Source: Escherichia coli (lineage in GTDB: Bacteria > Pseudomonadota > Gammaproteobacteria > Enterobacterales > Enterobacteriaceae). From it: a stretch of 64,000 nt of DNA. This document shows, one piece after another, positions 51,740 to 56,531 of the stretch. Both the position numbers and the translations under genes were made by a program. The notes below the pieces were generated by a model. It made no database searches, was not told the origin of the DNA, and saw only the letters and a program-made list of their open reading frames with translations. The DNA lies in the NCBI RefSeq assembly GCF_003991155.1, contig NZ_CP031293.1. One strand, written 5' to 3'. Position 1 is the stretch's first letter. Every line of letters begins with the position of its first letter.

Positions 51740-51943
51740 AATTCCTCCTTGCGGTCACAAATCTCCGTCGCCTGTACACGACCCAATAATACTTTGTACA
51801 ATATACGCTAAAATTGTACAAAGTATAAATAAGATTTCAGCTAAATTGAATGAAACATTATTTTTAATGTGGATTAAATTTAAACATAACGTATTCATTT
51901 TCACGATGATTTTCAGAAATCATACGAAATAATGTGCTGGAAA

Positions 51944-54427: not shown

Positions 54428-54676
54428 ATGAATAATTCAATCCCAGAGAGATTTATTTTGCAATGTGCTTTGTTTAAAAATCTCGAGAGGGAGGTGTTCA
54501 TGACGCATGGGTATGTTGATAGTTATATTATTGATCAGGCTTTACGCTTGCGTTTAAAAGATGAAACCAGTGTGATTCTTTCTGACCTCTATCTGCAAAT
54601 ATTGCAGTACATTGAAATGCATAAGACTACACTAACGGATATCATTATTAATGACAGGGAATCCGTGATCTCTTAG
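54428..54676 (+). CDS. ymgC: Small protein YmgC
   Basis: 82-aa ORF, last of the ycgZ-ymgA-ariR-ymgC cluster. Confidence 0.8.
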   Translation: MNNSIPERFILQCALFKNLEREVFMTHGYVDSYIIDQALRLRLKDETSVILSDLYLQILQYIEMHKTTLTDIIINDRESVIS

Positions 54677-54770
54677 AACTTGAGTAAGGTTATAGAATAA
54701 ACATCAGCTGTATTACCATGCTGGTGCAAAGTGAGCATTTCAGGCGTTATGCTTTCTTAATATGTCCGCA

Positions 54771-54824
54771 ATATCAGGTGTCAAGAATGGAGAGTTCTCG
54801 CTCTCCATTCTTGACACCTGATAT
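54771..54824. repeat. 24-bp perfect inverted repeat (large hairpin or cruciform)
   Basis: atatcaggtgtcaagaatggagag - ttctcg - ctctccattcttgacacctgatat, about 95 nt downstream of ymgC. Confidence 0.7.
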
Positions 54825-55007
54825 CCCGCCTAATTTATTTTATCCTATCTACATTATGCTCAATAATTAATGGGTTAGATCAAGATGGAGAAAATTTTAT
54901 CTTCGGCGTGGATATTTCTTATGCTCTCTACCATGCTCTCTGTAGATGCCAGCGCGAGCGAATGAATGGCATTTTCATGTATTAAACCCTTTGGCCGGGA
55001 CAAGCAA

Positions 55008-56531
55008 ATGCGCAATACACTCATACCCATCCTCGTTGCGATATGCTTGTTTATAACCGGTGTCGCTATTTTGAACATCCAGCTCTGGTATTCCGCAAAA
55101 GCAGAGTACCTGGCGGGAGCGAGATATGCCGCCAACAATATCAATCATATACTTGAAGAAGCGTCACAGGCGACTCAAACAGCGGTTAACATTGCCGGGA
55201 AGGAATGCGACCTCGAGGAGCAATATCAGCTTGGCACTGAAGCAGCTCTGAAACCTCACCTGCGCACAATCATCATTCTCAAACAGGGAACGGTCTGGTG
55301 TACATCCTTACCGGGGAATCGGGTCCTGCTGTCTCGTATTCCTGTTGTCCCGGACAGTAATTTACTGTTGGCTCCGGCAATCGACACCGTTAATAGATTA
55401 CCTATCCTGCTCTATCAGAGCCAATTTGCAGATACGCGCATTTTGGTTACGATAAGTGATCAGCATATTCGCGGGGCGCTTAATGTACCCTTGAAAGGGG
55501 TAAGGTATGTATTACGCGTGGCGGATGACATTATTGGACCTACGGGTGATGTGATGACGCTTAATGGACATTATCCCTATACCGAGAAGGTTCACTCCAC
55601 AAAATATCATTTCACTATTATCTTTAACCCGCCACCACTCTTTAGCTTCTACAGACTTATCGATAAAGGCTTTGGGATATTGATATTTATTCTGTTAATC
55701 GCCTGCGCCGCTGCTTTGCTGCTTGATAGGTATTTCAATAAAAGCGCAACGCCTGAAGAGATCCTGCGACGGGCTATAAATAATGGGGAGATCGTCCCTT
55801 TTTACCAACCTGTGGTAAATGGTCGGGAAGGGACATTGCGGGGAGTTGAGGTGTTAGCCCGCTGGAAACAACCTCACGGTGGATATATATCACCCGCGGC
55901 ATTTATTCCACTTGCTGAAAAATCCGGATTAATCGTTCCGCTTACGCAAAGCCTGATGAATCAGGTTGCCAGACAGATGAACGCTATCTCGAGTAAACTG
56001 CCGGAGGGTTTTCATATTGGAATTAATTTTAGCGCCTCGCATATTATTTCGCCGACGTTTGTCGACGAGTGCTTAAATTACCGTGACAGTTTTACCCGCC
56101 GCGATTTAAACCTCGTTCTGGAAGTCACCGAGCGTGAGCCATTAAATGTTGATGAAAGTCTGGTTCAGCGGTTGAACATTCTGCATGAAAATGGTTTTGT
56201 CATCGCGCTGGATGATTTCGGTACTGGCTACTCAGGGCTTTCTTATCTGCATGACCTGCATATTGATTATATCAAAATTGATCACAGTTTCGTTGGCCGC
56301 GTCAACGCAGACCCAGAATCAACCCGAATTCTGGATTGTGTATTGGATCTGGCGCGTAAACTTTCGATCAGTATCGTCGCTGAAGGTGTCGAAACGAAAG
56401 AACAACTTGATTATCTGAACCAAAATAATATCACATTTCAGCAGGGTTATTATTTCTATAAACCTGTTACATACATCGACCTGGTCAAAATTATCCTTTC
56501 TAAACCGAAGGTGAAGGTTGTGGTTGAGTGA
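55008..56531 (+). CDS. pdeG: CSS-motif-domain c-di-GMP phosphodiesterase (EAL)
   Basis: ORF trimmed to ATG 55008 (MRNTLIPILVAICLF..., 507 aa); N-terminal transmembrane segment, periplasmic domain, second transmembrane segment, C-terminal EAL-type domain. Confidence 0.87.
   Translation: MRNTLIPILVAICLFITGVAILNIQLWYSAKAEYLAGARYAANNINHILEEASQATQTAVNIAGKECDLEEQYQLGTEAALKPHLRTIIILKQGTVWCTSLPGNRVLLSRIPVVPDSNLLLAPAIDTVNRLPILLYQSQFADTRILVTISDQHIRGALNVPLKGVRYVLRVADDIIGPTGDVMTLNGHYPYTEKVHSTKYHFTIIFNPPPLFSFYRLIDKGFGILIFILLIACAAALLLDRYFNKSATPEEILRRAINNGEIVPFYQPVVNGREGTLRGVEVLARWKQPHGGYISPAAFIPLAEKSGLIVPLTQSLMNQVARQMNAISSKLPEGFHIGINFSASHIISPTFVDECLNYRDSFTRRDLNLVLEVTEREPLNVDESLVQRLNILHENGFVIALDDFGTGYSGLSYLHDLHIDYIKIDHSFVGRVNADPESTRILDCVLDLARKLSISIVAEGVETKEQLDYLNQNNITFQQGYYFYKPVTYIDLVKIILSKPKVKVVVE

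Follow-up and report, generated by a model that had tools for sequence, protein, structure and literature searches.

The window analysed here, a 64,000-nucleotide (nt) stretch of Escherichia coli DNA (contig NZ_CP031293.1 of RefSeq assembly GCF_003991155.1), carries a long palindrome in the spacer between ymgC, which ends the low-temperature, blue-light operon ycgZ-ymgA-ariR-ymgC, and pdeG, also called ycgG. RefSeq annotation of matching genomes places ymgC upstream of the palindrome and pdeG downstream. This agrees with the initial annotation of the sequence, which had put the element in a 330-bp gap between the two genes; from the ymgC stop at position 54676 to the annotated pdeG start at 55008 we count 331 nt. 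The hairpin that the palindrome would form as RNA begins 95 nt past the ymgC stop codon. As first described, the two arms are perfectly complementary (24 of 24 positions, 100%) and stand around a 6-nt spacer, TTCTCG. T54779 in the left arm is the partner of a polymorphic base in the right arm, at position 54816. The coordinates of the features discussed below are collected in Table 1.

Table 1. Features of the ymgC-pdeG region, in window coordinates
Feature	Position	Strand	Remarks
ymgC	54428..54676	+	Open reading frame (ORF); last gene of the ycgZ-ymgA-ariR-ymgC operon; annotated in matching RefSeq genomes
TCAGGCG	54740..54746	+	Near-copy of the left-arm base (TCAGGTG); complementary to CGCCTGA in the G-allele right arm
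Left arm	54771..54794	+	ATATCAGGTGTCAAGAATGGAGAG; 5′ half of the RNA stem
Spacer TTCTCG	54795..54800	+	U54795-G54800 pair in RNA, giving a 25-bp stem with a UCUC tetraloop
Right arm	54801..54824	+	CTCTCCATTCTTGACACCTGATAT; 3′ half of the RNA stem
TTGACA hexamer (K-12: TTGACG) in the right arm	54811..54816	+	Proposed pdeG −35
C-rich, G-poor tract	54825..54864	+	rut-like; 11 C and 2 G in 40 nt
TATTTT	54836..54841	+	Proposed −10; 19-nt spacer from the hexamer at 54811-54816; read from sequence
pdeG (ycgG)	55008..56531	+	CSS-EAL cyclic di-GMP (c-di-GMP) phosphodiesterase; gene downstream of the palindrome

The palindrome is genuine, non-random and of unusual length. None of 100 shuffles matched the arm, and no other perfect inverted repeat in the 64 kb is as long, the runner-up having arms of 14 nt. 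No second copy of the arm sequence was found within the window, even when up to three mismatches were allowed. Folding the RNA, a check proposed in the initial annotation, bore out the strength of the structure: in a 121-nt context the predicted energy is −49.8 kcal/mol (z = −10.1). The 54-nt element alone reaches −42.7, against a minimum of −32.9 among 1,729 other 54-nt segments sampled in the window, all of which are less stable. Directly after the stem comes CCCGCCTAATTT; the foot of the stem is A/U-rich (AUAU/AUAU) and runs into CCCGCC, and a U-rich stretch, UUUAUUUU, starts 9 nt past the stem. A terminator scan of the spacer returned no terminator-like site in three versions of the locus, in keeping with the earlier remark that the stem is not followed by a clean U-run.

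We found the 66-nt element, which comprises the palindrome and short flanks, in 4,951 of 5,426 complete E. coli genomes, always in the ymgC-pdeG spacer. The apparent two places per genome are both strands of one palindromic site, and all 14 records from a plasmid search likewise show exactly two. These 14 "plasmid" matches are non-mobilizable E. coli records, and the one that was inspected (pMY504-2) has the chromosomal bluF-ymgF gene order. About 91% of complete E. coli genomes carry both the YmgC protein and the right-arm 20-mer, and the right arm matched once per contig in all 80 of the metagenome contigs. A search of phages gave no match to the element. The right-arm 20-mer had no exact match in species-representative genomes (~100,000 species), a collection that apparently holds no E. 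coli genome carrying the locus and so informs on other species only, and a scan of the same collection for the YmgC protein likewise gave no match. This failure to find orthologues is explained by the restriction of ymgC, ycgG (pdeG) and ymgF to E. coli (Tschowri 2012). Rfam yielded only sub-threshold chance matches (mir-4864, P8 and others), far below gathering scores. The element is thus a single-copy, species-specific intergenic feature, neither a repeat family nor an insertion scar.

These results bear directly on the idea that the palindrome derives, as a copy or a scar, from some mobile or repeated element, for example a miniature inverted-repeat transposable element (MITE), joined insertion sequence (IS) ends or a member of a REP/ERIC-type family. 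Two 24-bp inverted repeats around a short intergenic spacer do resemble a minimal MITE. However, there is one locus per genome, no copy in phages, in other species or elsewhere on the metagenome contigs, and no Rfam family, and we give this idea almost no credence. Within the collections searched, repeat families and MITEs (REP/BIME, ERIC/IRU or IS-end derived) are ruled out by copy number. Among the four candidates that the initial annotation had listed unranked, the miniature repeat element is therefore refuted by its single locus per genome and by the lack of any copy in phages, true plasmids or the genomes of ~100,000 other species.

To describe natural variation, we read variants from 80 metagenome loci and 14 genome loci; the metagenome loci were selected on right-arm sequence, so the invariance of the right arm in that sample is biased. 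The K-12 type is 54 nt long, has TTGACG in the right arm and is complementary at 23 of 24 positions, with one T/G position that forms a U·G pair in plus-strand RNA and splits the perfect repeat into 8 + 15. The window form is perfect through an A in the right arm (A54816; G→A relative to K-12). A second perfect form, seen in locus L060, strain 94-3024 and others, arises through a C in the left arm (T→C), so that its two arms are exact reverse complements of each other. Among complete genomes, exact 66-mer matches number 2,889 for the K-12 type, 151 for the window type and 71 for the second perfect type. Roughly 1,700 complete genomes, about a third of E. coli, fall in an 80-90% identity class that holds a set of 58-nt forms.

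We distinguished three such 58-nt forms (B2a, B2g and V4). Their lower left arm carries 4 inserted nt as well as 2-4 substitutions, their loop is CGCTCG, and the top of their right arm reads TTTTCC in place of CTCTCC. In the predicted fold, 14 bp that include G·U pairs form the top stem, which an internal loop or bulge separates from a foot of 7-8 bp. All of them have G at position 54816, and they share their flanks with the 54-nt forms, with no insertion/empty-site pair. Four singletons complete the series: a G→A change in L039 turns a G·U into an A-U; L069 has the loop TTTTCG; L068 joins a K-12 left arm to a loop, right arm and flanks of the 58-nt type; and in 14EC020 a right-arm C→T adds one G·U. 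From CCATTC onward the right arm is nearly invariant in the loci read, the exceptions being the 14EC020 C→T and the G/A at 54816. The perfect palindrome of the window is limited to the lineage of the window strain; most E. coli, like K-12, match at 23 of 24 positions.

We compared the folds of plus-strand RNA, minus-strand RNA and DNA across the variants. Taken alone, the element is more stable as plus-strand than as minus-strand RNA in every variant: −42.3 against −37.5 for the K-12 type, −39.6 against −29.0 for L068, and −25.8 against −16.6 and −28.6 against −16.8 for 58-nt forms. For the 54-nt forms both RNA (z = −10 to −12) and DNA hairpins (−26 to −29 kcal/mol, z from about −9 to −13) stand far from background. 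In the 58-nt forms, z is −4.3 for the plus-strand RNA (0-1 of 200 shuffles were as stable), −1.1 to −1.6 for the minus-strand RNA (12-26 of 200), and −3.3 and −1.1 for the DNA. Positions that are not Watson-Crick are mostly G·U on the plus strand. An alignment of nine distinct variants has 94% of cells paired, with one pair alternating between G-C, G·U and A-U and another between U·G, U-A and C-G. Since only the plus-strand RNA folds significantly in the 58-nt forms, these predictions are suggestive of a conserved property that lies in a hairpin of sense-strand ymgC/pdeG RNA, not in DNA symmetry, and this would be what all versions have in common. Upstream of the element, the heptamer TCAGGCG pairs with the right-arm base CGCCUGA in long-flank folds of the 58-nt variants, in place of the left arm. 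It is kept in 11 of 12 aligned representatives (L039 has TCAGGCA), and the 58-nt forms may therefore have competing structures that involve it.

The same comparison weighs on readings that depend on DNA. The palindrome could be a dyad that binds a dimeric protein regulating pdeG or the operon end; alternatively, it could extrude under supercoiling as a cruciform that occludes a pdeG −35 element. In the window strain the DNA symmetry is perfect and overlaps the proposed −35, and the 54-nt DNA hairpins are very stable. Nevertheless, we consider such a function quite improbable: arms of 24 bp are far longer than known operator half-sites, and the arms of the 58-nt forms differ by a 4-nt insertion in one arm and by several mismatches. 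Because of this asymmetry, and because the DNA folds of these forms are near background, neither half-site spacing nor the capacity to form a cruciform is conserved. The papers that we consulted report no regulator site at the palindrome; the mapped site of BluR, which differs in motif, lies at the ycgZ promoter. Of the candidates in the initial annotation, the protein-binding dyad and the cruciform thus lack support as conserved properties, given the poor DNA symmetry of the deeper forms, and are possible for the derived, near-perfect forms; the RNA hairpin at the operon end is the candidate that is favoured, since plus-strand RNA folds best in all variants.

The order in which the variants arose was examined with neighbour-joining trees of the flanks, built with the element excluded (840 nt upstream, and 1.5 kb to either side). 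These trees put the 58-nt forms on deeper, more diverse branches, where they are paraphyletic, and the 54-nt form in one shallow clade. Four strains of the second perfect type make up a tight subclade within the K-12-type clade. The window type is a separate lineage beside the K-12-type relatives L017 and L027, and the two perfect types lie in different subclades. That they lie in different subclades and are perfected on different arms, and that all 58-nt forms have G at 54816, indicates two independent perfecting events. The simplest history read from these sequences runs from an interrupted hairpin to a 23/24 quasipalindrome and from there, on two occasions, to a perfect palindrome, the one pair being changed first in one arm and, in another lineage, in the other. 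The older interrupted 58-nt hairpin would have been converted into the 23/24 quasipalindrome in one E. coli lineage; the leftover U·G pair would then have been made Watson-Crick twice, becoming U-A in the window lineage through the right-arm G→A and, independently, C-G in the lineage of strain 94-3024.

We suggest that template switching between the arms during replication, or else simple transitions, most likely produced the steps toward symmetry. In E. coli, imperfect inverted repeats have been argued to be corrected to perfect ones by template switching, and all perfect inverted repeats detected in MG1655 have arms shorter than 20 bp (Lavi 2018, GBE 10:918); the perfect 24-bp repeat of the window hence exceeds any perfect repeat in K-12. 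In the 54-nt forms the left-arm block GGYGTCAAG is, apart from one base, the reverse complement of CTTGACGCC in the right arm. The element is thus an imperfect repeat whose mutations restore complementarity as if templated by the opposite arm (U·G to U-A or C-G; the left-arm block; L039), and clustered changes toward symmetry, together with one mispair corrected either way, are what quasipalindrome template switching predicts. The likeness to the quasipalindrome-associated template-switch hot spots described by the Lovett laboratory and in Lavi 2018 extends to natural variants that move toward perfect complementarity, to correction of the same mispair on either arm in different lineages, and to a block change that complements one arm to the other. 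The present case is deduced from population variation and not from a measured mutation rate, and template switching can only be inferred, because each perfecting step is also a plain transition. Locus L037 has a 58-nt imperfect element on K-12-like flanks; this locus and L068 would be explained either by short-patch recombination within the element or by recurrent conversion. We conclude that perfect symmetry is a rare, derived, recent and lineage-specific polymorphism, and is probably not itself the functional feature.

If mutation alone can build such symmetry, the element might be a neutral quasipalindrome, made symmetric through template switching, whose RNA hairpin has no consequence. Covariation among the variants does not exceed that of shuffles, no part of the spacer varies more than the left arm, the clustered changes toward symmetry could be produced by mutational bias alone (Lavi 2018), and the spacer takes IS3-family insertions and deletions in some strains. 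We nonetheless regard neutrality as rather unlikely. Every version seen has some hairpin, including the old imperfect ones, and in those it is confined to the sense RNA strand. Moreover, the operon mRNA needs a discrete end in a spacer that has no other terminator-like feature.

This last point follows from published work on the operon. A Northern blot revealed a single polycistronic ycgZ-ymgA-ymgB-ymgC mRNA (Tschowri 2012), and with one polycistronic mRNA and a spacer that lacks an intrinsic terminator, a discrete end must form in the spacer before pdeG. The ymgC mRNA has served as a non-polyadenylated control, not polyadenylated by PAP I, and abundant non-polyadenylated mRNAs almost all lack Rho-independent terminators (Mohanty & Kushner 2006). 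The name of one primer in that study, YMGC-355R, might place its 3′ primer in the left arm, but we give this no weight as evidence. The possibility that the palindrome is itself a canonical intrinsic (Rho-independent) terminator would account for a very stable hairpin past the last gene and for the U-rich stretch 9 nt beyond the stem. We judge it very improbable, however: the A/U-rich foot is followed by CCCGCC, with no U-tract within 0-2 nt, and the ymgC mRNA is without the poly(A) tails typical of intrinsically terminated mRNAs. We also rejected a composite terminator made of an outer helix and the U-rich run 9 nt downstream, in which the outer pairs vary (CCCGCC, CCCACC or CCCCCC).

A second class of mRNA end fits the locus better. 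Rho-terminated E. coli mRNAs have steady-state ends just past stable stem-loops that lack U-tracts and are followed by sequence with more C than G, and these U-less stems were concluded to protect from PNPase and RNase II (Dar & Sorek 2018). The palindrome gives a stable sense-strand stem-loop past the last gene of the operon, there is no U-rich tract directly past the stem, and C minus G equals 9 in 54825-54864, which is the 98th percentile of the 40-nt windows in the whole stretch. Because the stable stem and the missing U-tract match the class of Dar & Sorek (2018), as may the excess of C over G in the first 40 nt downstream, we favour, by analogy, a protective 3′ stem-loop at which the ycgZ-ymgA-ariR-ymgC mRNA, a presumably Rho-dependent transcript, would have its end fixed, and consider that this reading has about an even chance of being correct. 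Transcription would pass the hairpin and stop downstream, probably with Rho loading on the C-rich, G-poor stretch after the stem; 3′-to-5′ exonucleases would then trim the tail to the foot of the hairpin, where they would be blocked. In this way the hairpin would fix the end of the polycistronic mRNA, stabilise it and separate it from pdeG. We infer the position of the mRNA 3′ end at the hairpin, the dependence on Rho and the blocking of exonucleases.

The resemblance to the published class extends to an upstream mRNA that is discrete and not polyadenylated. The two differ in that the stem here is 24-25 bp and perfect, whereas those of Dar & Sorek (2018) resemble intrinsic terminators in stem and loop length and in energy; in addition, the palindrome is placed in the class by structure and sequence, whereas its published members are placed by mapped 3′ ends. 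All considered, the element is most likely an operon-end RNA hairpin of a known class, not a new kind of element.

Several observations weigh against a protective hairpin. The excess of C over G is short, ranking at the 84th percentile when 60 nt are counted and at the 62nd when 100 nt are, and the stem is much longer than a protective hairpin needs. The initial annotation had proposed looking for a transcript 3′ end; the Term-seq tables of Adams 2021 list none at MG1655 12170xx-12172xx, where the stem foot (window 54824) falls at about 1217144, in data for which expression of the operon is poor. There is no clear sign of strong purifying selection, as the left arm is the most variable part, with three substitutions and a 4-nt indel between the 54-nt and 58-nt forms. 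Covariation with nine distinct variants is not significant, shuffles reaching the observed scores in 136-272 of 500 cases, and one pair only changes on both sides. The strand bias of G·U pairs is small (~5 positions against 1-2). Finally, all comparisons fall within one species, ymgC and pdeG being specific to E. coli.

A long RNA duplex might instead be a processing site for RNase III. Cutting there would serve to destabilise the ycgZ-ymgC mRNA, to mature it, or to uncouple read-through into pdeG. RNase III takes ~22 bp of double-stranded RNA, and its in vivo sites are enriched in intergenic regions within transcripts and in untranslated regions (Altuvia 2018, NAR 46:10380). The window, K-12 and second perfect forms have a continuous helix of 25 bp, which exceeds this length, and like the hairpin substrates of Altuvia 2018 the 54-nt forms place such a duplex between genes on a possible read-through transcript. 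Unlike those substrates, the older 58-nt forms are interrupted helices, with a continuous stem of 14 bp and internal loops, so that this cannot be the role that is conserved, and we found no report in the literature linking ymgC to RNase III cleavage. We think this explanation unlikely.

Our analysis went beyond the initial annotation in two respects, namely in recognising perfection as a rare derived polymorphism and in drawing attention to the right-arm hexamer TTGACA/TTGACG, which has been proposed as the −35 of pdeG. Genomic SELEX (systematic evolution of ligands by exponential enrichment) with RpoD holoenzyme identified a constitutive promoter in the ymgC>ycgG spacer, given as TTGACG-19-TATTTT and flagged for H-NS (Shimada 2014, PLoS One 9:e90447). 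This string matches the K-12 sequence and maps to 54811-54816 and 54836-54841 in the window. It is possible, though doubtful, that the right arm owes its sequence to serving as the −35 of a sigma-70 promoter of pdeG and that the left arm is incidental. On this account, the perfecting G→A creates the consensus TTGACA and could raise pdeG expression. Consistent with a promoter, variation among the loci read is lower in the right arm than in the left, and strains with an N-terminal deletion of pdeG, whose truncated allele is reported to be functional, keep the palindrome and ~29 nt after it.

Other evidence argues against a promoter at this position. The hexamers assigned by Shimada 2014 are a sequence guess within the SELEX peak, and their spacer of 19 nt lies outside the usual 16-18 nt. 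Our promoter scan of the spacer found no promoter-like site in three versions of the locus; it missed the 54811-54841 pair because of the 19-nt spacer. The proposed −10, TATTTT, is weak and not conserved, the 58-nt forms reading TGTTTA, and the tables that we searched (supplements to Cappable-seq and SMRT-Cappable-seq) contain no transcription start site for pdeG. Furthermore, although the TTGACG/TTGACA hexamer of the Shimada 2014 promoter lies within the right arm, a promoter needs no left arm, and the complementarity of the left arm is left unexplained. A promoter is compatible with the RNA hairpin, and both may be true.

A more elaborate proposal joins the two: the palindrome would be a switch with two uses, coupling pdeG to the ycgZ-ymgABC operon, which blue light and cold induce, and the perfecting mutations, including the G→A of the window, would be adaptive for pdeG expression. 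On the RNA side, hairpin stability or RNase III cutting would set operon read-through into pdeG; on the DNA side, cruciform extrusion could hide the right-arm −35 of pdeG as supercoiling changes. We regard this combination as speculative and very unlikely to be correct.

Two further candidates at the palindrome were examined and rejected. The palindrome lies inside a 50-amino-acid ORF (54718-54870) that stays open in the window form, the K-12 form and the second perfect form. The 4-nt indel shifts its frame to an unrelated 35-amino-acid product in all 58-nt forms, and it is unannotated in curated MG1655. An antisense promoter reading out of the left arm (TTGACA, minus strand, 54784-54779) is unsupported: the scan found nothing, and the conserved final T is missing from the best −10 candidates, which are not the same in different strains.

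We noted several rearrangements in the spacer. In L003 (E. coli A29, NZ_CP028746.1; locus ~1440-1540), an IS3 with a ycgZ-ymgC deletion stops exactly at the top of the hairpin, so that the IS3 end ...GGGTAGGATCA adjoins GAGTTCTCG; the left arm is replaced, and the loop and right arm are intact. An independent IS3-family insertion lies ~105 nt past the palindrome, before the pdeG start, in L090 (E. coli AREA_499, NZ_CP123328.1). The ymgC-pdeG spacer seems to be a recurrent insertion site. In L002, L004, L046 and L054, an N-terminal deletion of pdeG, giving the allele "ycgG2", begins ~29 nt past the palindrome (window ~54853 onward) and joins the spacer to the EAL-domain half of the gene; this truncated allele has been reported to be active. 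These four loci are of the 58-nt B2a type, and other B2a-type loci have full-length pdeG. Within pdeG, the Term-seq data of Adams 2021 place 3′ ends of antisense RNA at MG1655 1218619-1218730 on the minus strand (window ~56300-56410), one of which comes from the bicyclomycin comparison table.

The second perfect inverted repeat of the window, at 51789-51826, lies in the bluR-bluF spacer just below the bluF ORF, with 14-nt arms and a 10-nt spacer (ATACTTTGTACAAT...ATTGTACAAAGTAT). Each arm contains TGTACA, the motif given for BluR and MlrA sites (Tschowri 2012). This repeat may serve the bluR promoter as a MerR-type operator, or may mark where the bluF transcript ends.

If the palindrome is a protective operon-end hairpin, it would provide the 3′ boundary that has been missing for ycgZ-ymgA-ariR-ymgC, a biofilm and stress operon that has already been studied. 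The operon would then end in a protective hairpin without a U-tract instead of an intrinsic terminator. Its overlap with the proposed −35 of pdeG means that natural alleles might differ in expression of a c-di-GMP phosphodiesterase. The population data, for their part, offer a natural, stepwise case in which an interrupted hairpin became a long perfect palindrome, with one mispair fixed on either arm, and this series of variants supports the template-switch model for the over-representation of perfect inverted repeats in bacterial genomes.

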